NCBI GenBank assembly: GCA_020444475.1
Contig: JAHLKV010000004.1
Coordinates: 84,304-148,303 of the forward strand
Source of the DNA: a bacterium
GTDB lineage: Bacteria; Zixibacteria; MSB-5A5; GN15; FEB-12
Length of the DNA: 64,000 nucleotides
Direction of reading: 5' to 3'
The stretch's first letter is position 1, and each line of letters starts with the position of its first letter. Position numbers and translations under genes: made by a program. A model generated the notes under the pieces. It did no database searches. It was not told where the DNA came from and was given only the letters and a program-made list of their open reading frames with translations. Shown in pieces: positions 3,066-31,255 of the stretch.

Positions 3066-4544
3066 ATGCTTAGTTCGCTGATATTCATCCCGCTGGCGGG
3101 AATGCTCCTCGTGATGATGTTGCCCAAAAACGCAAAATGGGCCATCCGCTGGACATCGGTCGCTGTCAGTATTCCTCCGCTGGTAATCTCATTCTGGTTG
3201 ACCTGGCAGTTCTTCGTCAACCATGCGTCGTCAGCGGCGATGGCGTTTGTGGAAGGCCCATACGACTGGATTCCGCTGCTGAATGTGCAGTACTATCTCG
3301 GCGCCGACGGTATCTCGATTCCCCTGCTGGCGCTGACCGGCCTGCTCAGCACGATCTCGCTGCTGGCATCGTTTGGTATCGACAAACGCGTCAAGGAGTA
3401 CTTCGCTTTCTTCCTGCTGCTCGAAGCCGGAATGATGGGGGTGTTTGTCGCGCTCGATTTCTTCCTGTTCTACATCTTCTGGGAAGTCATGCTGGTGCCG
3501 ATGTATTTCCTGATCGGCGTCTGGGGCGGTCCGCGCAAAGAGTACGCGGCCATCAAGTTCTTCCTCTATACGTTGTTCGGCTCGATCTTTATGCTGGTGT
3601 CGATCCTGATCCTTTATTTCACGGCCGAACCACACACCCTGAATATGATGGAGCTGATTCAGTCCGGTTCCACTCTGCCGCACACGCTGCAGCTGGTCTG
3701 TTTCGCCTTCTTTTTCATCGCTTTCGCAATCAAGGTTCCGGTCTGGCCGTTCCACACATGGTTGCCCGATGCCCACGTGGAGGCGCCGACTGCGGTCTCG
3801 GTCATCCTGGCCGGTGTTTTGCTGAAAATGGGTACGTACGGCATGCTTCGGATTAGCTGGCCGATGTTCCCCGAAGCGGTGCGCTACTTCTCGTTCTGGA
3901 TCGCCCTGCTGGGTGTGATCGCGATTATCTACGGCGCACTGGTCTCGATGGCGCAGAAAGACCTCAAGAAACTGGTGGCCTATTCCTCGGTGTCGCACAT
4001 GGGCTACTGCATGCTGGCGCTCGGCGCCGTGACATCGGTGCAGGCGATCACCGGCTGCATGTTCCAGATGATCTCCCACGGCCTGATCACGGGCGCGCTG
4101 TTCCTTTTGGTGGGTGTGCTCTATGATCGCGCCCACACCCGTGAGATCGCCGTGTTCGGCGGCCTGGGCTCCAAGCTGCCGGTCTACTCGGGCATCATGG
4201 TCTTCTTCTCGATGGCCTCGCTGGGACTGCCCGGCATGTCCGGATTCGTCTCCGAGTTCATGATCTTCGTCGGTTCGTTCGCAGCCCTTAACAAGGTCAT
4301 GGTCGGTATCGCGGTGCTCGGTGTCGTACTCGGTGCGGCCTATATGCTCCGCATGGTCCAGAATGTATTTCTCGGTGAATTCAACCTCTCAAAGTGGGGA
4401 GGGCTGACCGAGATCAACTTCCGGGAACTGGTGACGGTGGTGCCGTTGATGGTGTTCACCCTGTGGATCGGTCTGTATCCAAAGCCGCTGAATGAGCTGA
4501 TGCAGGCGACGCTCGAGCACCTCGTGACACTGATGGCACGGTAA
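3066..4544 (+). CDS. nuoM: NADH-quinone oxidoreductase subunit M
   Basis: 492 aa carrying the NuoM/ND4 motifs (WLPDAHVEAPTAVSVILAGVLLKMGTYG). It has a GGAAG-type ribosome-binding site upstream. Confidence 0.92.
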   Translation: MLSSLIFIPLAGMLLVMMLPKNAKWAIRWTSVAVSIPPLVISFWLTWQFFVNHASSAAMAFVEGPYDWIPLLNVQYYLGADGISIPLLALTGLLSTISLLASFGIDKRVKEYFAFFLLLEAGMMGVFVALDFFLFYIFWEVMLVPMYFLIGVWGGPRKEYAAIKFFLYTLFGSIFMLVSILILYFTAEPHTLNMMELIQSGSTLPHTLQLVCFAFFFIAFAIKVPVWPFHTWLPDAHVEAPTAVSVILAGVLLKMGTYGMLRISWPMFPEAVRYFSFWIALLGVIAIIYGALVSMAQKDLKKLVAYSSVSHMGYCMLALGAVTSVQAITGCMFQMISHGLITGALFLLVGVLYDRAHTREIAVFGGLGSKLPVYSGIMVFFSMASLGLPGMSGFVSEFMIFVGSFAALNKVMVGIAVLGVVLGAAYMLRMVQNVFLGEFNLSKWGGLTEINFRELVTVVPLMVFTLWIGLYPKPLNELMQATLEHLVTLMAR

Positions 4545-17200: not shown

Positions 17201-17636
17201 GGCCGGTGAACAGGGTTCAATCCGCAAGTCACTGCAGCAGCTGGCTGATGAGTTCGCCGGCTCGCGGCAGGTCCTTGGTCGACTCGATGATATCGCGAAG
17301 GAAATGAAGGAAGTCGAAGAGGACCTGGCCGACGGCGAGGCGGGTCCGGAGACAACCGAGCGTCAGCTTCGCATCTTCTCCCGCATGCTCGAAGCCAGCC
17401 GCTCCCTGCAGCGTCGCGATTTCAACGACCAGCGCAAAGCGACCACCGCCGAGTCGAGCCCGGTCTATGTTCCGGCCGCTCTCCCGGCGGAACTGCTGAA
17501 CGATCGGGCGCAATTCGAGGACCGGCTGAAGCGCTACCTGGGCGATGACTACCCGCCGCAGTACGAAGAGCAGATCAAGGCGTACTTCCGTGCGCTCATG
17601 CAGGCCGGCGGTGACGAGACCGGGAGCACCAGATAA
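14214..17636 (+). CDS. Large membrane-anchored coiled-coil / Gln-rich protein (hypothetical)
   Basis: 1140 aa. Two N-terminal transmembrane helices are followed by a ~450-aa beta-rich periplasmic region. After that comes ~600 aa of heptad-like E/K/Q/L-rich sequence with Gln-rich tracts and two Cys-pair motifs (QQCNKGGQCDKN, QNQCNSNPQQ). The gene starts 74 nt after the DUF4159 gene. Confidence 0.55.
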   Translation: MKQLASSSDLIRRLHAVLTKQRLVLFAAGLVLTVAAVTGSAVVLSLLANVLILPVWLKITLMAGTGLTALLLFGRYALVRLFEGDVDRVAAGLEKKYPDLKGRLVAAVQFSRSAVNQGFSADLIRANEQQALEKAGLINFNAVLSFHPVLRASRLLAVCASLALALLVFFPGLFSYSYEVYSNPTEVVAPPLAYELTAFPGTTEWVKYRDIEIGGVVVGQRIPRDAVIHYRLAGGHWQSENISLVGHDRTPTALGDSLSFGLTLRQIKKSFDYYVEAGRLKTDVQKIDVVDRPRVNDIHLSVFYPAYTELPPSTIEENNGSFSAVVGSRVAIKIETNLPVATAGMVFDDSSRVDFELQGKTGEASLVVRESGSYHILLKDNLGEVNPDPIEYYITAIPDEYPSVDVIRPGFNANLSEEMILPLMVRIFDDFGFSSLVLKYQVVSSGRTSDENVAVLHFSDKIKTEGEVSFNWDMDRLNLFPGDYVSYYFEVADNDQISGPKVGRSRTYIARLPSLDEIVAQTEQETTERITDTESLLRTGKELTKRLRDASRKLRAQNRNEEGADWQQKKELESIAQKNEEMVSQIEKMAEKMDKSLEQLRENALMSREIMEKLAELQKLFEEVATPEMREAQKKLMEALQNMDRDQLQQAMKDFEMSQEEMLQRLERQLALLKKMQIEQKMEAMLRKAEDLLKRQDKMNADTDSASADQLPQMSDTEQEIKKGLEDLKKEAGDLTEMLNDEKVEDLQEPRQFAEALQGTDADQNMQHMSESLQQQDKPQSKKEGEQASSKLAQMISRMQQQLAQMQGNDNQAIQQAMRRALEDANYLSEKQEDLLERVNELAPRSAMMREMAASQQDLMSACNGLKSSIAELGQKSPFVAAELQSLVDQAVSSMDQSISNLDGLRSAQAIQQQRDAMVQLNRASIRLMESMDSQQQCNKGGQCDKNMAQLENLSKKQQQLNQQTQNQCNSNPQQGQSGKMSEAEAERMKQGLQRLAGEQGSIRKSLQQLADEFAGSRQVLGRLDDIAKEMKEVEEDLADGEAGPETTERQLRIFSRMLEASRSLQRRDFNDQRKATTAESSPVYVPAALPAELLNDRAQFEDRLKRYLGDDYPPQYEEQIKAYFRALMQAGGDETGSTR

Positions 17637-17647
17637 GTGCGGGCAAT

Positions 17648-19534
17648 ATGAAGTTCTCATTCGCAGTCGTTGCATTTTCGCTTTGTCTGGTTGCGTCCGG
17701 TGTGGAGGCTCAGGATAATCGCGCAGCGGATACGCTTAAGCTCCGTCCCGCCGTCGACCCCTCAGACCGACGCGATTTTCGGGTGATCGGTCCGGCTCAG
17801 TCACAGGAAGGACTATCGGAGACCGATCGAAAGATCGGCATCGCACGCTCACTGATGCGCCAGCGCAACTTCGAGGGCGCTGCGAGTTTGCTCGAGGTTA
17901 TCCTCGAATCGGAGCCTCAAAACGGCATCGCCCAGAACCTCCTGCTCCAATGCTATCAAGAGTTGAACCGGACCCTTCAGGCGGAGGCGTTGGTGCGGCA
18001 ACTGCTGCAGGCTCAACCGGACAATTTCCAGTTCCGAATAACATTGGCTGAGCTGCTGGCGGCGCAGGACAGAATGCCCGAAGCGATCGAAGCCTACGAC
18101 CGGGCGGCCGGTTTGATCCCGCAGTGGAATGACCTTCGCGTGGCGGTACTGGTTCGCAGTGAACTGAAGAGTGGGGCAGTCGATCATGCGCTGGCCTATA
18201 TCAACCGCGCCCGACAGGAGACCGGCGACTCGACCATGCTCGCTTTGGAGACCGGGCAACTGCTCGAACGTCAGGGCCGCTACGCGGCGGCAGTGAAGGA
18301 ATACTTCCCCGTACTTGCCCAGGACACTACACGCGACGCATCCGATGCCGAGAAGCGATTGTTTGAGATGCTATCGTTTGTCGGTTCGGCCGCGGAGACC
18401 GAGGACGCGCTGTTGCACGTTTCTTCCGGCGAGGTCAGCCCGCGAGCTCTGCGTCTTCTCTCGACACACTTCATTCGCACCGGGCAGTTCGATAAAGCGT
18501 TTCAGTTCACGCTCCAACAGGACTCGGTGGAACAAGGGCAGGGACAGTCACTGCTGTTTTACATGCGTCAATGTGCCGAGCGCAAGCAATACGCACAGGT
18601 CTGTCGCATGGCCGACCGTGTTCGCGCCCGCTATGATGCATCAAGCCCGATCCTGGTCGACGCCCTGTTCCACTACGGTGATGCCCTGGTGCAACTCGGT
18701 CAGCTCGACTCCGCCATCGCCATGTTCAGTCTCGCAGGTCAGTCTTCGCCGGCCGACAACGATAAAAGCGAGGCGCTGTTCCGAATCGGCATGATCTATG
18801 TCGATCAGCTCGATGAATGCAATCAGGCAATGGTCTATTTCGACTCGATAACAACCCACTACCGACGGGGGAGAGGGTACCTTGATGCTCAGCTGCAGAT
18901 CCCTCGCTGTCAGATCAGGATGGGCGAATTGGATAGGGCGGCCGAGGCCTATGGACGTCTGCAGGACAGCCGACTGAATCCGGACATGCTCGAAGAAGTC
19001 GCTTACCAGAGCGCAATGATCCGCTTCTACGAGAAACAGTTCGACACCGCGCAGGTGATGCTCCGAAAGCTCATGGTAGACCATCCCCGAGGGTACTACG
19101 TCAATGACGCGCTCAGGCTCGTCATGACGCTCAAGGAGGTTGAGGGGAACGATACAGCCAGATACGACTTCTCCGATGCTCTGTATTTCTCGGCCCGGCG
19201 AATGCCCGATTCGGCGCGGGAGCGATACAGCCGTCTGGCCCGGGGAGAGGCGCTGGCGGATGTGTCCTTGTTGAAGCTGGCGGAGCTTGATCTCGCGGAG
19301 GCTGATTCTTCGGCTGCACTGCAGTCTCTGGAGAGTTTGATCGAGCGATTTCCCGAGTCGTACTATCTGCCGTTCGGGTTGAAAGCAAAGGCTGATGTGA
19401 TGATGGCTGATGAGGATTCTGTTGAGGCTGCGATGGCGATCTATCGACGGCTCCTGGCGGAATTCGGGAACTATCCATTCATCACCGAAGTCCGCGAGAG
19501 ACTTCGGATGTACGAACAGCAGCGAGTCGGCTGA
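17648..19534 (+). CDS. TPR-repeat protein (secreted)
   Basis: 628 aa with a signal peptide (MKFSFAVVAFSLCLVASGVEA). TPR-like helical repeats run throughout. The gene starts 12 nt after the previous gene. Confidence 0.7.
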   Translation: MKFSFAVVAFSLCLVASGVEAQDNRAADTLKLRPAVDPSDRRDFRVIGPAQSQEGLSETDRKIGIARSLMRQRNFEGAASLLEVILESEPQNGIAQNLLLQCYQELNRTLQAEALVRQLLQAQPDNFQFRITLAELLAAQDRMPEAIEAYDRAAGLIPQWNDLRVAVLVRSELKSGAVDHALAYINRARQETGDSTMLALETGQLLERQGRYAAAVKEYFPVLAQDTTRDASDAEKRLFEMLSFVGSAAETEDALLHVSSGEVSPRALRLLSTHFIRTGQFDKAFQFTLQQDSVEQGQGQSLLFYMRQCAERKQYAQVCRMADRVRARYDASSPILVDALFHYGDALVQLGQLDSAIAMFSLAGQSSPADNDKSEALFRIGMIYVDQLDECNQAMVYFDSITTHYRRGRGYLDAQLQIPRCQIRMGELDRAAEAYGRLQDSRLNPDMLEEVAYQSAMIRFYEKQFDTAQVMLRKLMVDHPRGYYVNDALRLVMTLKEVEGNDTARYDFSDALYFSARRMPDSARERYSRLARGEALADVSLLKLAELDLAEADSSAALQSLESLIERFPESYYLPFGLKAKADVMMADEDSVEAAMAIYRRLLAEFGNYPFITEVRERLRMYEQQRVG

Positions 19535-19549
19535 GCGGACTCGCCCGGA

Positions 19550-19798
19550 CTAGAACTTACCGAGTTTCTCCCGGCCCTGTTCCAGGGTCCTGATCTTCTG
19601 CTCAAGCACGAAAATGTCCCGTTTCAAACGTTCCTTGTCACCGTCTTTTTTCTTGGTGGTCGTACGGACCAGCAGGCCCAGCGACAGGAGCATGAAGAGC
19701 ACGGAGTTGATGCGGCGGAAAATCTCGCCCATATTCAGCAGGGAATCAGCGAAAGCCATGATTCCCAGAACAAACAGCACGGCACACCAAATTAGCAT
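19550..19798 (-). CDS. Small membrane protein (DUF2304-like?)
   Basis: 82 aa with two transmembrane helices followed by a basic, charged coiled tail. Confidence 0.35.
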   Translation of the reverse strand: MLIWCAVLFVLGIMAFADSLLNMGEIFRRINSVLFMLLSLGLLVRTTTKKKDGDKERLKRDIFVLEQKIRTLEQGREKLGKF

Positions 19799-19954
19799 AG
19801 TATCCCTAACCTTGTATTAATCCGCAGGCGAACTGGGCGGTAAAATAACTGTTGAGATTTGAGGCCCCGTTGTTATATTTGGCGCAATTGCCTGTCATTT
19901 TACCTAGTTATAAGTAAGATCGGCTGCCTGCAAAGGTGGCTTTAGGAGGAGATT

Positions 19955-22723
19955 TTGTCCGACCTGACAGCCCCGCCGCGCAATGCGTTTGACCGGACCA
20001 ATGCGATTTTTGCCGGCCTCGTCTTTTTCACCGCTTTTATCGTCTATGCTCTGACGGTACAGCGGTCGTTTTCGTTTTGGGACTGCGGCGAATTCATTGC
20101 CTGTGCCCATATTCTCGGCATTCCGCACCCGCCGGGCACACCGCTGTTTGTCCTGATCGGACGGTTTATGTCCCTGATCCCGTTCGTGGAAGATATCTCC
20201 TACCGGATCAACTACCTCTCGGTCATCTCCTCCAGTTTTACGGCCTTGTTCAGCTATCTGGTGGTTGTCCGTATGGTCGGGTTTTTCTTCACGGACCAGC
20301 ACAACTCCGCCGTGAATCGCTGGATCGCCTATGTTGGCGGCGCCGCCGGAGCGCTGTTTGTAGCCTTTTCGACCACCAACTGGGCAAACTCGGTTGAGTC
20401 CGAAGTCTACGGTCCGTCGCTCGCTCTCATGACGCTCATGCTGTGGCTGACCCTCCGGTATTTCGAAGAACGCTGTACGGCGAAAAAGCTCAGGACCATG
20501 GTATTGGTCTACTTCATCGCGCTGGCCGGTGTCGGCATCCACATGACGCCGTTCCTGATTGTGCCCGTCCTGTCGATTTTCTACATGCTCAACGAACAGG
20601 CCACTCGCCGGGACTGGATTATGGTCAGCGGCTTCATACTGGCTGAGTTGCTGCTTATCATGGCCTTCGCCGATGGGCGGGGAGGGGCGCCGATGTTTTA
20701 TGTCGTCACGCTGGCTCTGGGTGCGCTCCTGCTCGCTTTCCTCTACAAAAAGATCAACTGGGCCATCACTATTGCCATCGTGTCGCTGTCGTCGCTGATG
20801 CTTGAGTTCTCCACCTTCCTGTATATCGCTCCGGCCGGATTGGTCCTGCTGGCCCTGCTGGGCGTCGCAGCCAAGCGTTTCGGCTGGAATTTCGAATGGA
20901 AAGTCGCCATGGCGATCGTGGTCGTGGGAATAATCGGTTTCAGCGTCCACATGTATATCCCCATCCGCTCTGCGCATAGCCCCCGAATCGACCAGAACAA
21001 TCCCAGCCGGGATCTGGAGACCTTCAAGAACTATCTTGATCGCAAACAGTACGGTCAGGAGTCGATGGTGAACCGGATGTTCGAGCGCCGAGGCACGTGG
21101 GAAAACCAGCTCGGGCGGCACCCCAACATGGGCTACTGGTCGTACTTCGAAGAGCAGTATTCCGACGCCGGATGGAATTTCGTGCCCTTCCTGCTGCTCG
21201 GGCTCTATGGCATGTATGTCGCTATTCGTAAGCGGGCGGAGATCGGCATGACCTTCTTCACGCTTTTCATAGTCTGCTCTCTCGGTCTGGTCTTGTATAT
21301 GAATTTCGCCGATGGCACCCAATACGACGGGGCCGATGCGTATCTCGAAGTCCGCAACCGTGACTACTTCTTCACGCCGGCATTCGTCTTTTTCGGAATC
21401 GCCATGGGGCTCGGCGTCAGCGGCCTGATCCAGCTGGTGAAGGAGAAACTGGCGGCGAACAACGAAGGCATGCAGAAGACGCTGGTGTATGCGTCGACCA
21501 TCCTGATTCTCCTGCCCGGTATATCGCTGGCCGACAACTATCACGAAAACGATCGGTCGAACAATTACCTGCCGTACAACTACGCGGCCAACATACTCGA
21601 TTCGTGCGGTGAGAACGCCATCCTGTTTACCTCCGGAGACAACGACACCTTCCCGGTCTGGTGCCTGCAGGAGGTCTATAACTATCGCAAAGATGTACGG
21701 GTGGTGAACCTCTCGCTGCTGAACACCGACTGGTACACCTGGCAGATGAAGGAGCAGTACGACGTTCCCATCTCGCTGACCCAGGATCAGATCTGGTGGT
21801 ATGCGTATGAGACCCCCATGGGAGAGACTCGTCAGCCAAGAGAACGATTCCGCGACCGACCGCGCGGGCGACTGGCCTATCTCCAGGCGACACCGTATCA
21901 GGGCCGGGTACTCCGGGTTGCGGATATGATGGTCGATGAGATCGTACTTGAGAACCGCTGGGAGAACCCGATCTATTTTACGTCGCAGCCGTACGACGCC
22001 TCCCCGCTGAACCTGCGCGATCGGGCCACCGCGGTCGGTATTCTCTACCGGCTCGACCGTGAACCACCGGACAACAAGATCGATATCGAGAAGGGCCTCG
22101 ACCTGTTCCAGAACACCTATCGGTTTGGCGGCCTTGAGAACTCCGAGGTTTTCCGCGATGAAAACGCGACCGGCATCTTCCTTGGGGTCGGCATGAATGC
22201 CGTACGTTTGTTCGACGCCATGGAGCGGAGCGGACGGGTCGACGAAGCCCGGTCGTTTATCCGCTCGATGATCGAGCGATATCCCGAGTACTGGCAGGCG
22301 AGCTACGTCCTGGCCGAAGATCTGGAACGGGATGGAGACTCAGCGCAGGCGATTGAGATCTATCGTACGCTCGAAGACACGCTGACTGCCTTCCTGGCCA
22401 CCAATCCGCAGAACCTGTTCTATATGCAGGATCTGGGGATGACGAAAGTCGAGATCGGTCAGCGCATACAGGATCAGCAGCTGGTAGACGACGGCATGCA
22501 GTTGATGTGGCAGGCGTTTGAGCTGAACCCCAACAGCAGCTATGCGTTCCGCAAGCTGATCACGATTCTCGCCCGACAGAACCGTGTCGCCGAGATGCGT
22601 AAGGCGGCCGAGATGATCGCCGAGTACAAAATCAATCTCTCCGATCCCTACGTCCAGCAGATACTCAGGGCGACCGGCGGGAGTATCCCCGGCAACGTGC
22701 CGCCATCGCCCTTCGACGAGTGA
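19955..22723 (+). CDS. DUF2723 domain protein (O-mannosyltransferase/GT39-like membrane protein) with C-terminal TPR region
   Basis: 922 aa. The N-terminus carries the hallmark DUF2723 motif (YALTVQRSFSFWDCGEFIACAHILGIPHPPGTPLF). A polytopic region follows. The C-terminal ~250 aa are TPR-like. The start codon is TTG, preceded by an AGGAGGAG ribosome-binding site. Confidence 0.75.
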   Translation: MSDLTAPPRNAFDRTNAIFAGLVFFTAFIVYALTVQRSFSFWDCGEFIACAHILGIPHPPGTPLFVLIGRFMSLIPFVEDISYRINYLSVISSSFTALFSYLVVVRMVGFFFTDQHNSAVNRWIAYVGGAAGALFVAFSTTNWANSVESEVYGPSLALMTLMLWLTLRYFEERCTAKKLRTMVLVYFIALAGVGIHMTPFLIVPVLSIFYMLNEQATRRDWIMVSGFILAELLLIMAFADGRGGAPMFYVVTLALGALLLAFLYKKINWAITIAIVSLSSLMLEFSTFLYIAPAGLVLLALLGVAAKRFGWNFEWKVAMAIVVVGIIGFSVHMYIPIRSAHSPRIDQNNPSRDLETFKNYLDRKQYGQESMVNRMFERRGTWENQLGRHPNMGYWSYFEEQYSDAGWNFVPFLLLGLYGMYVAIRKRAEIGMTFFTLFIVCSLGLVLYMNFADGTQYDGADAYLEVRNRDYFFTPAFVFFGIAMGLGVSGLIQLVKEKLAANNEGMQKTLVYASTILILLPGISLADNYHENDRSNNYLPYNYAANILDSCGENAILFTSGDNDTFPVWCLQEVYNYRKDVRVVNLSLLNTDWYTWQMKEQYDVPISLTQDQIWWYAYETPMGETRQPRERFRDRPRGRLAYLQATPYQGRVLRVADMMVDEIVLENRWENPIYFTSQPYDASPLNLRDRATAVGILYRLDREPPDNKIDIEKGLDLFQNTYRFGGLENSEVFRDENATGIFLGVGMNAVRLFDAMERSGRVDEARSFIRSMIERYPEYWQASYVLAEDLERDGDSAQAIEIYRTLEDTLTAFLATNPQNLFYMQDLGMTKVEIGQRIQDQQLVDDGMQLMWQAFELNPNSSYAFRKLITILARQNRVAEMRKAAEMIAEYKINLSDPYVQQILRATGGSIPGNVPPSPFDE

Positions 22724-22746
22724 GGATTATCCGACTGGAGATACAG

Positions 22747-22781
22747 AAAACCCCGGCCTTGAGGCCGGGGTTTTTTATTTC
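22747..22781 (+). terminator. Rho-independent terminator after the DUF2723 gene
   Basis: The hairpin ccccggccttgaggccgggg is followed by TTTTTTATTT. Confidence 0.8.
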
Positions 22782-22804
22782 TGCCCGAACTCCAGTGATC
22801 TTAA

Positions 22805-23347
22805 TCATGGTCTTGGAACGGGCTCGCTTGCGCTACTGAGCTGCGACTCCCATGATGCGCGAAGCTTCTGCACGAACGTCTCATAGTCCCCAGAGTTGAG
22901 TCGGCGCGGAATGACGTGCGCAGTCGCCGACCCGACTACAACGAACGTGTGCTCGTCGGTAGTGGCGATATCTTCAATGCCTCTCCAGCCGATCGTCAAC
23001 GCATCGACTTCGGACGTAATGGTCAGACCCGCCTCGACTAGTTCTGCGCGGTGCCAGCCGAGAGCCCCCCTGTTCTCGGACTCACCGTAGATCTTCGCGA
23101 GTCGTCTCTTCACCCGCCTGGGATAGTCGAACCAAGCGAAGGCCGATGCGCCGATTCCCCCAAGCGCCAAATATAGAATCACGTTTGATTTCTCGAGGGC
23201 GGCGATGCCGATGAGGAGGCAGACGATGCAGACAGCTCCCGTTAAGAGTGGAAAAAGGCGATAGCGACGAGCAGTCTTTGAGGTTCGAAGCCAGTAGTCA
23301 CCGAATTGAAGCAGATCGTCGAGCGTTATATCATACTCGATTTTCAC
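22805..23347 (-). CDS. YcxB-like membrane protein (hypothetical)
   Basis: 180 aa with two transmembrane helices in the middle. The N-terminal and C-terminal regions have a bPH/YcxB-like character. Confidence 0.35.
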   Translation of the reverse strand: MKIEYDITLDDLLQFGDYWLRTSKTARRYRLFPLLTGAVCIVCLLIGIAALEKSNVILYLALGGIGASAFAWFDYPRRVKRRLAKIYGESENRGALGWHRAELVEAGLTITSEVDALTIGWRGIEDIATTDEHTFVVVGSATAHVIPRRLNSGDYETFVQKLRASWESQLSSASEPVPRP

Positions 23348-23417
23348 GACATCCCTCCCGGTACCGATGCGAAGATGAAGAAACCGGGCCCCTCAAATGA
23401 GCGACCCGGTGAGATGA

Positions 23418-23933
23418 TCAGTCGGAGAACTTGTAGCCGGAGCGGCGACGATAGCCGCCCCCGGCCTTCTCGAGCATCTTCTCCGCGACGAATTCATGGC
23501 GGACCGTCGCGAAGTCGTCGTAATAGCGGCTAATGACGTTGTTCACGTCCTCTTCGCTGTAAGTTTTGCTCGGCTCGAACTGGGCGAGGATGAACTCCAG
23601 CAGGTACTTGCGCTCAAACGGCTTCGACGGCAGCTCCTCGATATGATCGTCTTTGACGTAGTCCTTGACGATTTTGGCCTTGTGCGGCTTGCCGTTGCCA
23701 TTACCATTACCGTTTGTTCCATCGTTGGCGTGGCGTTCGAGCCATTCGTGCACCGCTGACTCCGGGATGCGCCAGTCCTTGCCGATCTTAAACGCCCGGA
23801 TCTCACCCGCCTGTACCTTACGGGTGATGACCTGGACGTTCATTTTCAGCTTCTTGGCCAGCTCCGCGGTAGTAAAGAATTCCGTGTTTTTGATGATTCC
23901 TTCGACATATTCCATTGAAAATCTCCATTGCAC
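23418..23933 (-). CDS. Helix-turn-helix (excisionase/MerR-type) plus DUF2087 domain transcriptional regulator
   Basis: The N-terminal HTH (TTAELAKKLKMNVQVITRKVQAGEIRAFKIGKDWRIPESAVHEWL) is followed by a GNGNGNG linker. The C-terminal domain (FERKYLLEFILAQFEPSKTYSEEDVNNVISRYYDDFATVRHEFV) is DUF2087-like. The true start may be the internal Met at 23915. Confidence 0.5.
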   Translation of the reverse strand: MQWRFSMEYVEGIIKNTEFFTTAELAKKLKMNVQVITRKVQAGEIRAFKIGKDWRIPESAVHEWLERHANDGTNGNGNGNGKPHKAKIVKDYVKDDHIEELPSKPFERKYLLEFILAQFEPSKTYSEEDVNNVISRYYDDFATVRHEFVAEKMLEKAGGGYRRRSGYKFSD

Positions 23934-24099
23934 TCACTGGGGTAGGATGAGCAAACGAACACTGTTTTTGGATTATTGTCAAACCCTTTTTGGGAGTATG
24001 ATGTATTTCACCATCACGTTGCGTGCGAGTACAGCGCGACTTCTGCGTTCTATCTTCACCGGTTGACTTTCTCCGTGCAAAAAACGTAATTCAACCTAC

Positions 24100-24999
24100 A
24101 TGACAGCATTCGTATACGTTCTCCTTTGTTTGATCTGGGGCTCGACCTGGATCGCCATCAAGATCGGTCTGTCCGCCGCCCCACCGCTGCAGACTGCGTC
24201 GCTTCGTTTCATGCTCGCCGTGTCGATCCTCACCGCCATCGTCATCCTGAGGAAGTACCCGTATCCAGACGGGTGGCGAACCTGGGTGAAGGTCGGGTAT
24301 CCGGGGGTGTGGATGTACGGGATACATTACGCACTGATCTACTTCGCTCAGCTGCATATCAGCTCCTCGCTCACCGCGGTGCTGTTTGCGTCGTTTCCGT
24401 TTTTCGTCGCCATCCTCTCCACGCTGCGGTTGCACGAGACGCCGGTTACGAGGCTCGGCTGGTGCGGGATCGCGGTCGGCTTCGGCGGCGTGGTGCTGAT
24501 CTCGTACGAGCAGCTGGCGACCTCCGGTGATCTCTTCCTCGGGACGGTGCTGGCGCTGGCGGCGACTTATGCTGCGGCGCACGGGCTGGTGCTGCACAAG
24601 AAGTACCACGCCCGGGAGAACATCGTGGTGACCTCAAGCATCCAGATGTTGTTTGGCGGCGTACCGGTGCTGATCGCGGCGCTGCTGTTCGAGAGCTGGT
24701 CCGACTTCCACGTCTCGGCGGAGTCGGTGGGGTCGATTGTTTACCTGGCGGTCATGGGCACGGTGGTCGCTTTCCTGTCCTACTACTGGCTCCTGGCCCG
24801 CATGACCGCCGTATCCGCATCGCTCACCGCGTTTATCACGCCGTTGGTGGCGATCTTCATCGGCGTGTTGTTTTTTGCCGAGTCCCTCTCAATCCCCATC
24901 ATCGCCGGGGCCACCCTCATCCTCTCCGGGGTGGCGCTCTCTATTGAGCGACCGAACGGCCAGACTAAATCGCCCGTCTCTCCCATGCCGCCGACGTAG
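24100..24999 (+). CDS. EamA/DMT family transporter
   Basis: 299 aa with ~10 transmembrane helices and two EamA-like halves. Confidence 0.7.
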   Translation: MTAFVYVLLCLIWGSTWIAIKIGLSAAPPLQTASLRFMLAVSILTAIVILRKYPYPDGWRTWVKVGYPGVWMYGIHYALIYFAQLHISSSLTAVLFASFPFFVAILSTLRLHETPVTRLGWCGIAVGFGGVVLISYEQLATSGDLFLGTVLALAATYAAAHGLVLHKKYHARENIVVTSSIQMLFGGVPVLIAALLFESWSDFHVSAESVGSIVYLAVMGTVVAFLSYYWLLARMTAVSASLTAFITPLVAIFIGVLFFAESLSIPIIAGATLILSGVALSIERPNGQTKSPVSPMPPT

Positions 25000-25006
25000 A
25001 CAAGGT

Positions 25007-26902
25007 TTAGAAGTCTATCCCGACACCAATCGCTGTCGGGTTCGGATGCTCGCTGTCCGAGACCGGACCGAGCCATCGGGCGCCGTTGGCCGCCCAGTCT
25101 TCGGAGTAGCTGTCGTTCCCGCCACCATCGACGAATACTCCAAAACAGGCCAGGACCGAACGGATACCGGTCGCAATTGAGTTAGCGCGGCCGAGCGTCG
25201 TGGTGCCGGTCTTCGTGGTGTAGACATCATCGCCGGCATGGTCGTGAAATATCCCGATACCGTTGGCGTTGCCTCCCCCTAGCGAGAGATTGGGGACCGT
25301 GTACTTGTCGTTGCCGGAGCGCTCATTGAAGTAGCCGATCGTGAAATCATGGCCGGCCCCGACCGCCATGTTATGGCTGGCCGCATAGATGTCGTCGCCT
25401 GCAAAATCATCGAGATAGCCAACCGCAAAATGCGCCCCGCTGCCCATGACATACCAGACACCCTCGTGGGTGTCATCGCCGGCGGCATCAATCAGCATCC
25501 CGACCGAAAACCAGTAGGCGCAGCCCTGGGCGAACAAACCCGACGAGTACCTGTCGTTGCCCGAGAGATCGCAGAGAATACCGACCCCGCCGGCCCAGCT
25601 GTGGCCGTCGATAAAATCCGCCCGCCGACCAAATCCGACTCCCTGCGCGAGGGAGTTGTTGTGTTCGTTGTTTTGCGAAGCGGCCGAGAAGATCGTGTCG
25701 TCTTCGGCGATGTACACGTCATCACCGGCGCCGTCGAGCAACAGCCCGCAGCCGCGCGAGTAGCCAAACCCCTGCGACATCGACCAGCAGTACAGACTGT
25801 CATCCCCCTCCTGATCCGAAAGCACACCCAGTCCGAACGCGCCCGCTCCCTGTGTGAGATAGCGACCGCTGTAGGTGTCATTCCCCGCCTTATCGATCAC
25901 GGCGCCGACTCCAAACACGCCTGCTCCCTGACACACGTTCTGTCCCCTGTAGCTGTCATCACCGGCGAGATCAAGCACGTACGACAGCGAGATAAGCCCG
26001 CCGCCGATGCCCGGCTTGGTGGAGTCTTCGGAGATATACCGGTCGTTGCCGGCCAGATCGACTATGGCCGCGATCGGGCGTTCTTCGTTTTGTCCCGGAA
26101 ACGAATAAACGTCGTTGCCGCCGCCGTCGACTATCAGCAGCGGCGCCTGAATGTACTCGAACCGGTCATCACCGGCGGTGCCGACAATGATATCACCGTG
26201 CGAGGTCCCGATCTTCACGACGTAGTCAGGGAACGCGCAGTCCGGGAGTTTCTCGGCGAGGCGTTTTAGCGCCTCGGCGATATCTTCAGCCCCGGCCACC
26301 ATCCGGCCCATATCCACTTTGGCGTACAGCTCTTCGATCTCATCCCCGCGTGAACTGGAGTCCTCAATGAGGTACTGCCAGAGGGCGTCGCGATACTTGT
26401 TCTTGTCGATTTCTTCGATCCCGACCCGGAAGTAGTTGTCCTCGTCGTCGACCACGCGATAGAAGAGATCGATGGCATCGCGAAGGGTCTTGTTTTCGTT
26501 GCCGGTCAGGACATTCCGTTTGTAGCAGATCGAGAATTTCGACAGCGAGTCATCGGCATCGATATACGGTTCCAGCTGATCGCCTATCAAACCACGCCGG
26601 ATCGGCTGGTCGGCACGCTGCCCGGCGAAAGCGAGCAGGCCGACGAGGTCAGCGGTCTTTCCCGACAGCTCCTCGACGATCAGGTCGGCATGCTTCGGCA
26701 GCGAGAAGGGGTTCCGGTGGTAGAGGGTGAAGTAAGACAGGCGCCATAGGTCCCCCTGCCAGGTAGCCATTTCATCCTGATCGAACCGGACGTCGGCGGA
26801 GTTCAGACCGACCTGGGCGAGCGCCGAGTCGAACGGGGCGAGCTCTTGCGCCGCGGCAGCCTGAGAGATACACAAGAGAGCGATAGCCAGTAGGTATTTC
26901 AT
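25007..26902 (-). CDS. Secreted repeat protein with ~17 tandem ~22-aa GNDxY/GDDxY repeats (beta-helix-like), unknown family
   Basis: The signal peptide MKYLLAIALLCISQAAAAQ begins at the ATG at 26902, with a GGAG 8 nt upstream. The N-terminal ~230 aa are non-repetitive. They are followed by repeats of the form L-x-D-x-A/G-G-N/D-D-x-Y...QG-x-G-x-x-G-x-G. The periodicity is also visible at the nucleotide level. Confidence 0.6.
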   Translation of the reverse strand: MKYLLAIALLCISQAAAAQELAPFDSALAQVGLNSADVRFDQDEMATWQGDLWRLSYFTLYHRNPFSLPKHADLIVEELSGKTADLVGLLAFAGQRADQPIRRGLIGDQLEPYIDADDSLSKFSICYKRNVLTGNENKTLRDAIDLFYRVVDDEDNYFRVGIEEIDKNKYRDALWQYLIEDSSSRGDEIEELYAKVDMGRMVAGAEDIAEALKRLAEKLPDCAFPDYVVKIGTSHGDIIVGTAGDDRFEYIQAPLLIVDGGGNDVYSFPGQNEERPIAAIVDLAGNDRYISEDSTKPGIGGGLISLSYVLDLAGDDSYRGQNVCQGAGVFGVGAVIDKAGNDTYSGRYLTQGAGAFGLGVLSDQEGDDSLYCWSMSQGFGYSRGCGLLLDGAGDDVYIAEDDTIFSAASQNNEHNNSLAQGVGFGRRADFIDGHSWAGGVGILCDLSGNDRYSSGLFAQGCAYWFSVGMLIDAAGDDTHEGVWYVMGSGAHFAVGYLDDFAGDDIYAASHNMAVGAGHDFTIGYFNERSGNDKYTVPNLSLGGGNANGIGIFHDHAGDDVYTTKTGTTTLGRANSIATGIRSVLACFGVFVDGGGNDSYSEDWAANGARWLGPVSDSEHPNPTAIGVGIDF

Positions 26903-27078
26903 CGATTCAACTCCATCGAAGCGATATTTCTTTTTCCCCAAGCTATCCGCCTGCCGCCCCGGAACAACCTTTTTCTAGCACAATCCGGGTGCTCCCCGCC
27001 CCGTATCCGCTTGTCTCGCGGGCGGCATTTGGTTATGTTCGCAGTCAGTCTGAAATGCCTTTCGGCAGGGAGGTTTGC

Positions 27079-28491
27079 ATGAGTCTTGACAAGCTCAAGA
27101 AGATGGTTAAAGACCATGGGGTGGAGTATCTCGACCTGAAGTTCGGCGATCTGCTGGGCTTCTGGCATCATATCACACTTCCGGTCAGCGAACTTGGCAC
27201 CGGGTTGTTCACCAACGGGGTCGGGGTCGACGGATCTTCGCTGCCCGGCTTCTCGCGAATCGAAAACGGAGACATGATTCTCCTGCCGGTCGCGGACACG
27301 GCGTTTATCGATCCCTTCTTTGATCGTCCGACCCTCTCGATGTTGGGCGACATCATGGAAGTCGGCGACAAAGTGCTGCCGTACTCGCGCAATCCCCGCC
27401 GGGTGGCGAGTCACGCCGAAGCGTACCTTGCGAAAACGATCAAGGGCGCCAAGATCATTCTCGGTCCCGAGTTCGAGTTCTACGTCTTTGACCGGGTGAA
27501 CTTCTTCCAGGGACCGGACAGCGCTTTCTACGATCTCGACTCGACCGAGGCGATGTGGCAGGCGCCGGATGACGATGAAAACCTCGGCTATAAGATCCCT
27601 TCGAAAAAGGGTTATCATATCGCGCCGCCGATGGATCGTATCTACAATCTTCGTTCGGAGATTTGTTCGATGCTGGCCAAGGTTGGGGTCGGGTTGAAAT
27701 ACCATCATCACGAAGTCGGTGGCGGCGGGCAGCATGAGATCGAAGTTCAGTTTGCGCCGTTGCTGGCGATGGGGGACCAGTCGATGCTGGTCAAGTACTT
27801 CGTCAAAAACCAGGCGTTTCGTTCGGGCAAGTCGGCGACCTTTATGCCCAAGCCGCTGTTCAACGAGCCGGGTTCGGGCCTGCACGTTCACCAGTATATC
27901 GCCGACTCCAAAGGCTCGATCTTCTTCGACAAAAACGGCCGGGCGCGGTTTTCGGATATCGGCCTGTGGTATATCGGCGGGATGCTGAAGCACGTCGATT
28001 CGATCCTCGCGTTCACGAATCCCTCGACCAATTCCTTCAAGCGGCTCGTGCCGGGGTTCGAAGCGCCGGTGGCAGGGACGTATTCGGTGGGCAACCGGAC
28101 CGCCTGTATTCGTATTCCCGGCTATCAGCGCGATCCGAAAAAGATGCGCTTCGAGTTCCGTCCCCCCGACGGTACGATGAATCCGTATCTGGCGTTTGCG
28201 GCGATGTTGATGGCGGGTATCGATGGTATCAAAAACAAGATCGATCCGGGTCTGCCGCTCGATCAAAACCTCGATGAGATGAAACCTGAAGATCTGGTGC
28301 ATATGCACATGCTGCCGACGTCGCTCAACAAGGCGATGAACGCCCTCGAAGAAGACAACAGCTATTTGCTCGAAGGTGGCGTGTTCACCGAAGATCTGCT
28401 GGAGAACTGGATTAAGCTCAAACGGAAAGAAGTGACGGAGATTCGTATCCGTCCGACACCGTACGAGTTTGAGATGTATTACGATTTGTAA
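27079..28491 (+). CDS. glnA: Glutamine synthetase, type I
   Basis: 470 aa starting at MSLDKLKKMVKDHGVEYLDLKFGDLLGFWHH (GS beta-grasp). The catalytic domain carries HHHEVGGGGQHEIEVQF and the C-terminal NSFKRLVPGFEAP and MRFEFRPPD motifs. The tracked ORF starts 90 nt earlier, at 26989, with no homology support. Confidence 0.85.
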   Translation: MSLDKLKKMVKDHGVEYLDLKFGDLLGFWHHITLPVSELGTGLFTNGVGVDGSSLPGFSRIENGDMILLPVADTAFIDPFFDRPTLSMLGDIMEVGDKVLPYSRNPRRVASHAEAYLAKTIKGAKIILGPEFEFYVFDRVNFFQGPDSAFYDLDSTEAMWQAPDDDENLGYKIPSKKGYHIAPPMDRIYNLRSEICSMLAKVGVGLKYHHHEVGGGGQHEIEVQFAPLLAMGDQSMLVKYFVKNQAFRSGKSATFMPKPLFNEPGSGLHVHQYIADSKGSIFFDKNGRARFSDIGLWYIGGMLKHVDSILAFTNPSTNSFKRLVPGFEAPVAGTYSVGNRTACIRIPGYQRDPKKMRFEFRPPDGTMNPYLAFAAMLMAGIDGIKNKIDPGLPLDQNLDEMKPEDLVHMHMLPTSLNKAMNALEEDNSYLLEGGVFTEDLLENWIKLKRKEVTEIRIRPTPYEFEMYYDL

Positions 28492-28605
28492 ATCTTGCAA
28501 ATGGTGTTGAGACGCGTGGTGCACGGGGACGTACACCGCGCACGAAGACACTACGCACGAAATGAGAGCGGGCGCAGCCGAGTTGGTTGCGCCCGTTTTG
28601 CTTTG

Positions 28606-28672
28606 GATCGGACCCACCCGGGACGGGTGGGGTACAGCTCCATGCAAAGCCACCCGGGACGGGTGGGGTACT
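28606..28672 (+). repeat. Duplicated 21-nt hairpin motif (cccacccgggacgggtgggg-tac), two copies 37 nt apart
   Basis: Direct reading shows cacccgggacgggtggggtac at both ~28613 and ~28650. Each copy is an 8-bp-stem hairpin. Confidence 0.6.
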
Positions 28673-28975
28673 CGCTTCTTGTGCGGGGTCTTCCTGCGGA
28701 ACGCCCGGAAACGACTTTTTCGCTGTACAAGTGTGAATGCGTGCGGGTTACGGCGAAATGGGTTTGTTTTGTCATTTTTTAAGTTCTTTTTTTTGATTCG
28801 GTGCATGTGCGGACGGAGTTTCGGCGTGCGGCGGATCATTGAGATAAGTGCTGTCGACGAGCCCGTGCGCATTCTACGCCCTTTCCTTTACAAAAGGGGG
28901 CAGATGTATGATCACCATCGAAGTTGTAGGGAAATCGTGGGATCCGTGGTGCACGGGGACGTTCACCACGCACGG

Positions 28976-29470
28976 TGTCTTCGAGCGTCACGTGTCGTTC
29001 GGCTCCGGCGTGCTAGCACGTGACGCAACGGGGGTGTCGGGCTGCAAGCAGCCTCGACCTACTTCCAAGATAGATACCTGTTTTCACGGGTATGACAGAA
29101 CTTTGTTCTGTCTTGATTGAAGATGGGTACCTGCCTCCGCAGGAATGACACATCTTCGATGTGTCTACGGGCGTCACGTGTCGTTCGCCTCCGGCGTGCT
29201 AGCACGTGACGCAACAGGGGTGTCGGGCTGCAAGCAGCCTCGACCTACTTCCAAGATAGATACCTGTTTTCACGGGTATGACAGAACTTTGTTCTGTCTT
29301 GATTGAAGATGGGTACCTGCCTCCGCAGGTATGACACATCTTCGATGTGTCTTCGGGCGTCACGTGTCGTTCGCCTCCGGCGTGCTAGCACGTGACGCAA
29401 CAGCGATGTCGGGCTGCAAGCAGCCTCGACCTACTCCTGAGATAGATACCCGTTTTCACGGGTATGACAC
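28976..29470 (+). repeat. Tandem repeat array, 186-bp unit x ~2.65 copies, hairpin-dense (candidate structured RNA)
   Basis: Unit starts are at 28976, 29162 and 29348; the third copy is truncated near 29470. Each unit holds at least 6 perfect hairpins, for example gacacatc-ttc-gatgtgtc, acagaac-ttt-gttctgt, tacctgc-ctcc-gcaggta, atacc(t/c)gt-tttc-acgggtat and gcgtcacgtg...cacgtgacgc. Copy-to-copy identity is ~95%. Confidence 0.85.
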
Positions 29471-29475
29471 GTTTC

Positions 29476-30243
29476 CTACTTCTCCACCCGCTTGTCCAAC
29501 ACCATCGAATGGGCCTGCGCGGTGGGCATGATAACCACTTCCTGCACCTGCACGTGCGGCGGGCGCGAAGCGACCCAGAAGATGGCATCGGCGATATCAT
29601 CGCCCGTCAGCGGCTGGTAGCCTATGTAGGTTTGGCTGGCCCGCTCGGCCTGACCGTGGAAGCGGACCAGTGAAAACTCGGTCTCAACCAGACCGGGGTC
29701 GACAGTCGACACGCGCACCGGGGTATCGACCAGGTCGATAGACATACCCTGGGTCAGGGCATTGACGGCGAATTTGGTCGCGCAGTAGACGTTGCCGTTG
29801 GGGTAGACCCAGTGCCCGGCGATCGAGCCGATATTGATTACGTGGCCGCGTCCGCGCTTGACCATCCCCGGGATGACCGCCCGGCTGACATGGAGCAGCC
29901 CCTTGATGTTGGTGTCGATCATCTCGTTCCAGTCGGCCAGGTCGCCTTCGTGGACTTTCGACAGTCCCCGAGCCAGCCCGGCGTTGTTGACGAGCACATC
30001 AATCTCCTGCCATTCGGCGGGGAGTGAGTCGACAGCGGTCTTGACGGCGTCGAAGTCGCGGACATCGAGCTCGATAGCATGCGAGTCGGACTTGAGTTCG
30101 GTAGTTAGTTTCTTAAGTCGCTCGGCGCGTCGGGCGGCGACAATCACGCGGGCGCCTTCAGCGGCAAATCGTCGGGCGGCAGCCTCGCCGATACCGGACG
30201 AAGCGCCGGTGACGAGGACGATTTTGTTATGCAGGTGTTCCAT
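29476..30243 (-). CDS. SDR family NAD(P)-dependent oxidoreductase (YdfG-like 3-hydroxy acid dehydrogenase)
   Basis: 255 aa with the TGASSGIG Rossmann motif, an NNAG motif and the YCATKFAV catalytic Y-x-x-x-K. Overall similarity is to YdfG-type SDRs. Confidence 0.85.
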   Translation of the reverse strand: MEHLHNKIVLVTGASSGIGEAAARRFAAEGARVIVAARRAERLKKLTTELKSDSHAIELDVRDFDAVKTAVDSLPAEWQEIDVLVNNAGLARGLSKVHEGDLADWNEMIDTNIKGLLHVSRAVIPGMVKRGRGHVINIGSIAGHWVYPNGNVYCATKFAVNALTQGMSIDLVDTPVRVSTVDPGLVETEFSLVRFHGQAERASQTYIGYQPLTGDDIADAIFWVASRPPHVQVQEVVIMPTAQAHSMVLDKRVEK

Positions 30244-30250
30244 GTTGGTC

Positions 30251-30565
30251 CTTCTATTGGCGGTTTCGAAGACGGAACCGCCCTACAGGTCTTGTTCGTA
30301 TAGTCTTGCAACCGTGACTGAAGTCACGGCCACATCGATTGAAGTCACGGCCACATCGTCCGTGTCGTCTCGTGCACGGCTCAAATTCGCGCGATGGCGG
30401 TTTCGAAGACGGAACCGCCCTACAGGTCTTGTTCGTATAGTCTTGCAACCGTGACTGAAGTCACGGCCACATCGATTGAAGTCACGGCCACATCGTCAGT
30501 GTCGTCTCGTGCACGGCTCAAACTCGCGCGATGGCGATTTCGAAGACGGAACCGCCCTACGAGTG
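30251..30565 (+). repeat. Tandem repeat array, 142-bp unit x ~2.2 copies, with an internal 18-bp direct subrepeat (gaagtcacggccacatcg x2)
   Basis: Unit starts are at 30251, 30393 and 30535 (partial). The first two copies are ~98% identical. Each unit contains the hairpin ggcggtt-tcgaagacgg-aaccgcc and the palindrome gtgactgaagtcac. The array lies in the 5' region of the minus-strand SDR gene. Confidence 0.85.
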
Positions 30566-30623
30566 CCGTTCAAAGTACGCCAACGGGTGCGATCTGTCAA
30601 ACGGTCGCACCGTCCTGTGAGCA

Positions 30624-30655
30624 AACAAAAAAATCCCGGCCGGAGGGCCGGGATT
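30624..30655 (-). terminator. Rho-independent terminator for the NfeD-flotillin-ORF operon
   Basis: On the minus strand the hairpin atcccggccctccggccgggat is followed by TTTTTTTGTTT. It lies 30 nt downstream of the stop of the 30686..31255 gene. Confidence 0.75.
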
Positions 30656-30685
30656 CCAATATCAACAGCGATTCATTGGCACGAC

Positions 30686-31255
30686 TTACGTTGTCTCTTC
30701 GAACCGCACTTTGGCGCCGTCAAGCTCGGCCCAGAAGGTTCGCACGCGGATGCCGGCGAAATCTGAGAGGAGCAGGCGAGCGGCGTGGCCGAGATCTTCG
30801 CGACCTTTGGTGACGGCGTCGATGCGAGTGTGGTAGCCCTGCAGTTTCTGGTACCACTGGCAATCTTCGTGGTTGATGATGATCACTTCGGAGAGCTGTT
30901 GTTCCTTGACGGCAAACTTCACCTGCTGCCAGAGCACTTTGAAGTTTTTCGGCAGCAGAGTCTGGGCGCCGAAGGCGTGGATACCGCCACCGAGGACTAT
31001 GGGCATGTAGGGACGGATACCGAGCTCTTCGGTGACGAACCGTCGAAAGGCGGTCTGGAAGCGCGGGTCACCGCAATGGATGACCAGCGCCTGTGGTCGC
31101 TGCGTATCGAGCTGATAGACGGGGCGACCGTCGATCGCTCGCACGTCGGCGGGAACCTGACGGCTGCGGTCCGGGGCGTTGTCGCCCCGGACTGCCTGCC
31201 TGCTATCGGTTTTTGGTGCGCGTGCCATCGGAGGTTTCTCCCGCGTCGGGTTCAC
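30686..31255 (-). CDS. Hypothetical protein co-transcribed with flotillin
   Basis: 189 aa with no recognised motif beyond the HCGDPRF and GGGIH segments. It overlaps the flotillin 3' end by 53 nt (25 nt if the internal Met at 31228 is used). A terminator follows it. Confidence 0.45.
   Translation of the reverse strand: MNPTREKPPMARAPKTDSRQAVRGDNAPDRSRQVPADVRAIDGRPVYQLDTQRPQALVIHCGDPRFQTAFRRFVTEELGIRPYMPIVLGGGIHAFGAQTLLPKNFKVLWQQVKFAVKEQQLSEVIIINHEDCQWYQKLQGYHTRIDAVTKGREDLGHAARLLLSDFAGIRVRTFWAELDGAKVRFEETT

Follow-up and report, generated by a model that had tools for sequence, protein, structure and literature searches.

We analysed a tandem array of hairpin-forming DNA that lies between two convergent genes in a 64,000-nt stretch from a GN15/Zixibacteria-like genome (hereafter the window). 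One neighbour is glnA (27079–28491, plus strand; Pfam Gln-synt_C, 4.6e-111), and the other encodes a short-chain dehydrogenase/reductase (SDR) of 255 amino acids (29476–30243, minus strand; adh_short, 6.7e-58), as a preliminary description of this DNA had proposed. Tandem Repeats Finder detected a repeat with a 186-bp period at 28975–29469 (2.7 copies, 96% matches, 0 indels, score 913), and repeat searching together with alignment of the copies resolved 2.65 copies of the unit, at 28975–29160, 29161–29346 and 29347–29469, bearing out the array as first described. Copies 1 and 2 differ at 5 of 186 positions and copies 3 and 2 at 7 of 123, and identity among the copies is 94–97%. The array has no strand of its own; its edge is 6 nt beyond the stop codon of the SDR gene, whose 3′ end it adjoins and which is read on the opposite (minus) strand. 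On the other side, approximately 80 nt past the glnA stop codon, is a strong hairpin that resembles a terminator and includes a T-run (CGGGCGCA...TGCGCCCGTTTTGCTTT; 28569–28605, plus strand), and about 370 nt of other sequence separate this hairpin from the array. The earlier suggestion that the array could be a 3′ untranslated region (UTR) of glnA is not supported by this layout: a terminator-like hairpin and 370 nt intervene, whereas the array adjoins the SDR stop codon.

The repeat unit is a chain of hairpin modules

The array has an A-B-A-B-A architecture, in which A (123 nt) consists of three hairpin modules, H1, H2 and H3, and B (63 nt) consists of H4, H5 and H6. H1, identified by folding and from its sequence, is a 42-nt nested palindrome of neither strand (GCGTCACGTG ... 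GTGCTAGCAC ... CACGTGACGC; 28985–29026, 29171–29212 and 29357–29398). H2 is a GTAG-headed hairpin of the repetitive extragenic palindromic (REP) type, GTAG-GTCGAGGCTGC-TTGC-AGCCCGAC, on the minus strand (29036–29062, 29222–29248 and 29408–29434). H3, a hairpin of the NTS/SRM type discussed below, also lies on the minus strand (29070–29097, 29256–29283 and 29442–29469); copy 3 reads TGTC-ATACCCGT-GAAA-ACGGGTAT-C-TAT on that strand, and copies 1 and 2 carry a single stem change (ACAGG) relative to it. H4, GACAGAAC-ttt-GTTCTGTC (29094–29112 in copy 1 and 29280–29298; either strand), has its GTC in common with the GTCAT flank of H3. H5 is a second GTCAT-type hairpin on the minus strand, GTGTC-ATACCTGC-GGAG-GCAGGTAc-CC (29125–29151 in copy 1 and 29311–29337), the left arm of which is ATTCCTGC in copy 1, with one additional mismatch. 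H6, GACACATC-ttc-GATGTGTC (29147–29165 in copy 1 and 29333–29351; either strand), crosses the unit junction and has its GTC in common with the flank of H5.

Along the minus strand, starting at the SDR stop codon, the modules follow one another as H3, H2, H1, H6 fused to H5, and H4 fused to the next H3. On that strand H6 and H5 form GACACATC-gaa-GATGTGTC fused to GTC-ATACCTGC-GGAG-GCAGGTAC-C, and H4 reads GACAGAAC-aaa-GTTCTGTC, joined to the following H3. Every perfect stem that the preliminary description had named could be located: gacacatc/gatgtgtc and gacagaac/gttctgtc are present in the unit, gcgtcacgtg/cacgtgacgc surrounds GTGCTAGCAC, tacctgc/gcaggta is perfect in copy 2 and has one mismatch in copy 1, and the variable base of atacc(t/c)gt/acgggtat is T in the first two copies and C in the third.

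Folded as plus-strand RNA, the unit has a minimum free energy of −86.9 kcal/mol (z = −6.45); the minus-strand RNA has −75.4 kcal/mol (z = −6.10), and the minus strand folded as single-stranded DNA (ssDNA) gives z = −6.59. Each folding was compared with 200 shuffles, none of which was as stable, and the hairpin density is far above chance. The copies also differ unevenly along the unit: only 3 of 11 variable positions fall within strict stems, which form 66% of the unit (binomial P = 0.011). This depletion suggests constraint on the hairpins.

Several other kinds of repeat were considered and rejected. A CRISPR array would have repeats of about 24–48 nt separated by unique spacers; the 186-bp units are contiguous and have no spacers, in agreement with the preliminary description. 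By reading the sequence, we found no GTTRRRY core of integron attC sites in the array, and no hydrophobic small open reading frame (ORF) of the kind found in type I toxin–antitoxin repeats. ORFs of 53–90 amino acids within the array had no Pfam match, and we regard them as the usual junk translations of such hairpins.

H3 and the dRS3/NTS hairpin family

The H3 hairpin (ATACCCGTTTTCACGGGTATGA) is found far beyond the window. At least 120 unrelated metagenome contigs, representing many habitats, contain its exact 22-mer ATACCYGTTTTCACGGGTATGA; among the matches listed, they have only H3 in common with the window. In most of the listed contigs, an inverted GTCATTCCCGCGAAAGCGGGAATCCAG hairpin accompanies H3 at a distance of about 35 nt, within several unrelated elements that resemble miniature inverted-repeat transposable elements and that carry their own terminal inverted repeats. 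The partner hairpin is that of the Neisseria dRS3/NTS repeat (GTCATTCCCGCGAAAGCGGGAATCC), and H3 is this hairpin with compensatory stem changes. Compensatory stem variants in the family comprise ATTCCCGC/GCGGGAAT, ATACCCGT/ACGGGTAT, ATTCCTGC/GCAGGAAT and ATTTCCGA/TCGGAAAT; many more are present in unselected flanks, on which we relied, and a formal covariation count on a set of hairpins that had been chosen for pairing was set aside. Homologous sequence with compensatory stem variants is found elsewhere, then, in the form of modules. Only two matches of the 22-mer were found in viral contigs, and there is therefore no sign of a phage origin.

The Neisseria dRS3/NTS repeat (CGTCATTCCCGCGMAVGCGGGAATCYRG) is bound and cut, as ssDNA only, by the small GIY-YIG nuclease SsnA, and a degenerate 'Ssn-related motif' (SRM) is linked to ssn genes across phyla (PMC11893778). 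Cleavage requires the GTC 5′ of the stem, and binding requires the C directly 3′ of it (PMC11893778). The same Neisseria sequence has also been handled as a REPIN (a paired REP) tied to a group-2 REP-associated tyrosine transposase (RAYT) (bioRxiv 10.1101/2021.07.10.451892). Both H3 (TGTC-ATACCCGT-GAAA-ACGGGTAT-C) and H5 (TGTC-ATACCTGC-GGAG-GCAGGTAc-C) retain the critical 5′ GTC and 3′ C, and H3 copy 3 (29442–29469, minus strand) fits the published SRM expression, HGTCWYN(0-2)YYVSBRHN(0-5)WNVSBRGN(0-2)RNCYNB.

Some of the contigs with H3-type hairpins also illustrate the settings in which they occur. In one (L068, 570–1010), a 102-amino-acid GIY-YIG gene (Pfam 3.7e-16) has NTS/SRM-type hairpins on both sides, including GTCATACCCGTGAAAACGGGTATCCAG, with the exact H3 type among them, which is the 'NTS-ssn-NTS' architecture reported for Neisseria. 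Another, unrelated contig (L007, 150–1250) contains a tandem series of at least 11 units, each about 90 nt long. Every unit pairs a GTCTTTCCCGCGAAAGCGGGAAACC with a GGATACCCGCTTRCGCGGGTATGAC hairpin in inverted orientation, and the exact H3 variant is present in one of the units; tandem arrays of an H3-type module are thus not unique to the window. In a third unrelated contig (L100), an ORF with Y1_Tnp and DnaA_C domains lies 1.5 kb from an H3 hairpin.

The modules recur separately at a non-syntenic locus

To follow the other modules, we scanned the 23-mer of H2 against 185,579 species-representative genomes. The sole match was locus L002, on contig WJMS01000016.1 from a metagenome-assembled genome (MAG) of 'candidate division GN15', which has no flanking gene in common with the window. 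L002 contains H2, H3 and H4 with 96% identity over 77 nt. A second H3 at this locus adjoins H6 directly; the window has H4 after H3, and H6 after H5. H1 is also present (4081–4125, 91% identity), about 1 kb from H2–H4 and in the opposite orientation relative to them. L002 additionally has two hairpins with other stems, GTCCGAACC-acag-AGGTTCGGAC-CTAC and GTTGGAACC-gcag-GGGTTCCGAC-CTAC. Read on the CTAC strand, H2 is GTCGGGCTGC-aagc-AGCCTCGAC-CTAC, and the two L002 hairpins have the same ...GAC-CTAC ending. On the other strand, these hairpins show the hallmark of REP elements, a palindrome headed by GTAG.

Comparison of the two loci indicates that the modules are independent of one another and dispersed in GN15-type genomes, where they have been reordered and reoriented. 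The hairpins are spread over two genomes and several loci; within the window they occur only around the SDR gene. From these sequence comparisons we assign H3 to the dRS3/NTS/SRM hairpin family and H2 to the GTAG-REP type. The view that the array does not look REP-like is not supported: the unit holds one GTAG-headed REP-type hairpin and two dRS3/NTS-type hairpins.

These findings bear on another explanation of the array, a recent slipped-strand duplication of neutral intergenic DNA that belongs to no family and has no function. The high identity of the copies, and the lack of another copy of the unit in the window, would be in keeping with such an event. Against it stand the modules at a non-syntenic locus of another genome at 91–96% identity, the identical H3 in so many metagenome contigs and a hairpin density that lies 6 standard deviations beyond shuffles. 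Duplication accounts for the copy number and not for what the unit contains. As an account of the unit's content, neutral duplication is contradicted, and as a complete explanation we consider it most improbable; as the mechanism of amplification, it is part of the best explanation.

No separation of strands by RNA structure

The preliminary description proposed a structured non-coding RNA on the plus strand, either a repeated small RNA (sRNA) or a new RNA family. Such an RNA might be made from an upstream leader or as the 3′ UTR of glnA. The plus strand does fold slightly better, and the C>T change in the H3 stem of copies 1 and 2 gives a G–U pair on that strand only. The z-scores, however, are equal on the two strands, and strand assignment by folding energy was therefore dropped. 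The proposed polarity was based on this one C>T change, yet the family consensus at this position, determined from the metagenome flanks, is C. The minus strand carries the family motif from which the hairpin takes its orientation (GTC, stem, GAAA loop, stem, C), and the orientation motif of the DNA-repeat families to which the modules belong is on that strand. Three substitutions fall in stems: one could form a wobble pair, and only in the plus strand, and the other two disrupt pairing on both strands. Of the original proposal of a selected structure, the apparent constraint on the stems is supported; its attribution to a plus-strand RNA is not.

Searches for RNA features gave no support for this proposal either. 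The covariance models of Rfam 15 had no match at gathering thresholds anywhere in the window, and at E values up to 10 the region 28400–30750 had only chance-level matches. A scan for promoters and terminators found no sigma-70-like promoter or intrinsic terminator within the units. The array resembles tandem sRNA arrays (NsiR1 of Nostoc) and sRNAs from glnA 3′ UTRs (GlnZ) in having structured tandem units of 100–200 nt near a nitrogen-metabolism gene; it differs from them in that its units have neither promoter nor terminator of their own, a terminator-like hairpin precedes its glnA-side edge, and the unit is not conserved in relatives. The only match of the NsiR1 model, at 30625–30667, falls outside the array and is no better than chance (16.9 bits, threshold 39, E = 4.1). 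A weak match to the rnk_pseudo leader at 30623–30719 on the minus strand (29.3 bits, gathering threshold 55, E = 0.024) shares sequence with the upstream gene's terminator hairpin and is probably due to chance.

Two non-coding segments ahead of the array, 28720–28779 and 28915–28935, are 83–90% conserved in a relative described below (L124, 10811–10870 and 11032–11052), where they also precede a tandem array in the same relative orientation, and this conservation speaks for a plus-strand transcript. In L124 the segments lie past the SDR stop codon on the SDR sense strand, and the block of segment and tandem array is thus inverted relative to SDR between the lineages. The segments may be a promoter, a leader or simply another repeat. 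With the unit nowhere conserved whole, its modules recurring only separately, shuffled and inverted, and the relatives carrying unrelated arrays at the site, we judge a plus-strand structured RNA very unlikely, and the idea of a new structured RNA family is not supported: there is no Rfam match, and the modules fall in known families of DNA hairpin repeats.

Repeat turnover next to the SDR gene

To compare the site among relatives, we collected contigs that carry homologues of the SDR protein. The contigs of all close relatives, with SDR proteins 84–95% identical, end 24–520 nt past the SDR stop codon, as expected if repeats sit there. In the closest relative (L123, 95% identical), the TAG that ends the SDR gene also belongs to the GTAG of H2, and a 45-nt segment that holds H3 is absent; in the window, this segment has AGTAG on both sides. 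A relative with 85% identity (L124) has a different tandem array, of 103 bp in 2.2 copies, with a long hairpin ending ...GCTGAC-CTAC. A second relative at 85% (L125) has a contig that ends ahead of the array position, and in relatives at 84% (L126–L131) there is a 22-nt tandem hairpin array. Another GN15 MAG with an SDR protein of 69% identity (L134) has a plain terminator and none of the modules. What is conserved at the site is a tendency to gather hairpin repeats, with no specific sequence or structure retained, and these contigs mark the site as a hot spot of repeat turnover. We also note a short-read contig (L001, Logan SRR14069905) that is 100% identical to 17079–28771 of the window and breaks off at 28771, within a T-run ahead of the array.

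A second array in the SDR 5′ UTR

On its other side, the SDR gene is preceded by a second tandem array, with 2.2 copies of a 137-bp unit (30258–30560, minus strand), located in the SDR 5′ UTR between a putative promoter and the start codon. Three GTAG hairpins (GTAGGGCGGTTCCGTCTTCGAAACCGCC) bound its units in the SDR sense, at 30259–30286, 30396–30423 and 30533–30560. The number of these hairpins is 3 in the window, 2 in L123 and 0 in L124 and L126, and such variation in copy number among close relatives is a further point in favour of neutral duplication. The array also holds an internal 21-bp duplication, TGAAGTCACGGCCACATCGAT.

The putative SDR promoter, recognised from the alignment of relatives, is TTGACA-17 nt-TACTTT (30572–30600, minus strand), upstream of the 137-bp array. 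Both hexamers are retained in the window, L123 and L126, and L124 and L125 have TACCTT; a strict promoter scan did not list this promoter. Arrays of GTAG and GTCAT hairpins flank the SDR gene on its sense strand, in the 5′ UTR and at the 3′ end.

The array as a probable part of the SDR transcript

On the minus strand, the first hairpin of the array starts approximately 10 nt past the SDR stop codon and no terminator precedes it, for which reason the array is probably transcribed as the SDR 3′ UTR. In L123, with the stop codon inside the GTAG of H2, transcription has to include the hairpin. Should the array be transcribed at all, read-through from SDR would be the simplest route.

This raises the possibility that the array has its primary selected function at the RNA level, on the minus strand, for which the repeat family has served merely as raw material; the hairpins would stabilize the SDR mRNA, terminate it or insulate it from convergent glnA. 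In addition to the position of the first hairpin and the L123 stop codon, this explanation is favoured by the loops on that strand, GAAA (a GNRA tetraloop) and CUUG, by the depletion of substitutions in the stems, and by the REP array in the SDR 5′ UTR. It would also agree with well-established effects of REPs in Escherichia coli, where REPs near a stop codon stabilize the upstream mRNA and modulate translation. However, no U-run follows any of the hairpins, H3 copies 1 and 2 would have an A–C mismatch in the minus-strand RNA, and relatives that have a plain terminator or unrelated arrays at this position indicate that no particular structure is required. We consider such a primary function on the minus strand unlikely. 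A role of the array as a terminator or insulator is possible as a side-effect.

Other features of the locus and window

Some further repeats were seen close to the array. A 37-nt hairpin-forming direct repeat (28508–28544 and 28938–28974, 86% identical) brackets the 430 bp from the end of glnA to the array, and its second copy touches the start of the array. Just past the glnA terminator, at 28613–28671, are two identical 22-nt hairpins, CCACCCGGGACGGGTGGGGTAC, 36 nt apart. Farther away, the minus strand at 25007–26941 encodes a secreted-looking protein of 644 amino acids with many repeats of the GxDxY or GNDxY type and no Pfam match, and a 21-bp tandem repeat, CGGCCGCGCCGGAGGCCAAAC, is present in about 3 copies at the very edge of the window (1–64).

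Discussion

We conclude that the array is a mosaic of short hairpin DNA repeats, comparable to bacterial interspersed mosaic elements (BIMEs) and Neisseria intergenic mosaic elements (NIMEs), rather than a dedicated RNA gene or a new structured RNA; it would represent a known kind of repeat in an uncultured lineage. We put the probability of this conclusion at roughly 70%.

A number of observations weigh against it. REPs are defined by a high genomic copy number, and the few local copies of the modules in the window do not suggest one; a BLAST search with the 186-bp unit found no second occurrence in the window beyond the array itself, and intergenic hairpins elsewhere in the window look like ordinary terminators. 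The match of H3 and H5 to the SRM is incomplete, as a single C>T change puts H3 copies 1 and 2 outside the strict expression and H5 departs from it at that same position of the stem, and the expression matched the window twice against 0.5 matches expected, which is weak evidence by itself. We found no GIY-YIG gene and no Y1-transposase gene in the 64 kb. Finally, the depletion of substitutions in stems fits a selected RNA structure as well as a DNA structure, and the conserved 60-nt segment at 28720–28779 might serve a plus-strand transcript as its leader or promoter.

The likeness to Neisseria dRS3/NTS repeats and NIMEs extends from the hairpin to its arrangement. The hairpin layout, GTC-AT-N6-tetraloop-N6′-AT-C, is the same, with H3 differing by compensatory stem changes, and in both cases the hairpins form intergenic arrays, bracketing the repeat units, and cluster around a gene. 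The differences are that the host here is GN15/Zixibacteria-like, that the stem is ATACCCGT (H3) or ATACCTGC (H5) and not ATTCCCGC, and that the hairpins within a unit are direct repeats rather than inverted pairs. A GTAG-type REP and a 42-nt palindrome are also interspersed among them, and there is no ssn gene in the window.

The array can equally be compared with the REP, BIME and REPIN sequences of enterobacteria and pseudomonads. In H2, as in the hairpins bounding the 137-bp array, an imperfect palindrome of 20–30 nt is headed by GTAG; these hairpins lie outside genes, and their stems differ while the GTAG flank is the same, as in the variants of L002 and L124. Like BIME-2 elements, they occur in tandem mosaics with other motifs, with copy numbers that vary between strains, and their location between two convergent genes, at the 3′ end of one of them, is also that of REPs. 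The sequences are unrelated to those of E. coli and Pseudomonas REPs, and a scan for perfect-stem hairpins in about 100 kb of the clade found only a handful of GTAG hairpins, too few for enrichment statistics.

How such an array might have arisen is suggested by its form. Where a spacer has a copy of a dispersed element on each side, unequal exchange between the two copies should produce an A-B-A-B-A array, and the present one would have arisen through unequal recombination or replication slippage between two 123-nt A blocks; Neisseria NIMEs and E. coli BIME-2 have this layout as well. The modules themselves would be kept or spread as ssDNA hairpins recognized by a trans-acting enzyme encoded elsewhere in the genome, for which a small GIY-YIG nuclease of the Ssn type and a RAYT or IS200-like HUH transposase are candidates. 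As a by-product, hairpins in the transcript could stop 3′ exonucleases or act as insulators between the convergent transcripts of glnA and SDR, in the manner of E. coli REPs.

A more speculative proposal is that SDR and the hairpin arrays of its UTRs form a functional 'repeat-gene-repeat' cassette, resembling the NTS-gene-NTS configuration of Neisseria, or, alternatively, that a leader at 28720–28935 drives a multi-hairpin RNA on the plus strand. We regard both as quite unlikely. If the cassette were real, an Ssn-type ssDNA nuclease or a RAYT would control the recombination, exchange or expression of a single gene in an uncultured phylum.

With the array interpreted as a BIME/NIME-like mosaic, one candidate is struck from the list of possible new RNA families, and hairpins of the dRS3/NTS and GTAG-REP types are seen to co-occur in tandem mosaics of GN15/Zixibacteria-like genomes. 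To our knowledge, such repeats have not previously been described in this lineage. The presence of an exact 22-mer hairpin in very different elements and habitats points to a cross-phylum phenomenon. There are also practical consequences, as such hairpins give rise to spurious ORFs and spurious structured-RNA candidates, and they break short-read assemblies, the contigs of all close relatives stopping at this locus. Two copy-number-variable UTR arrays on one gene would be a handy natural system in which to study the effects of repeats on mRNA.

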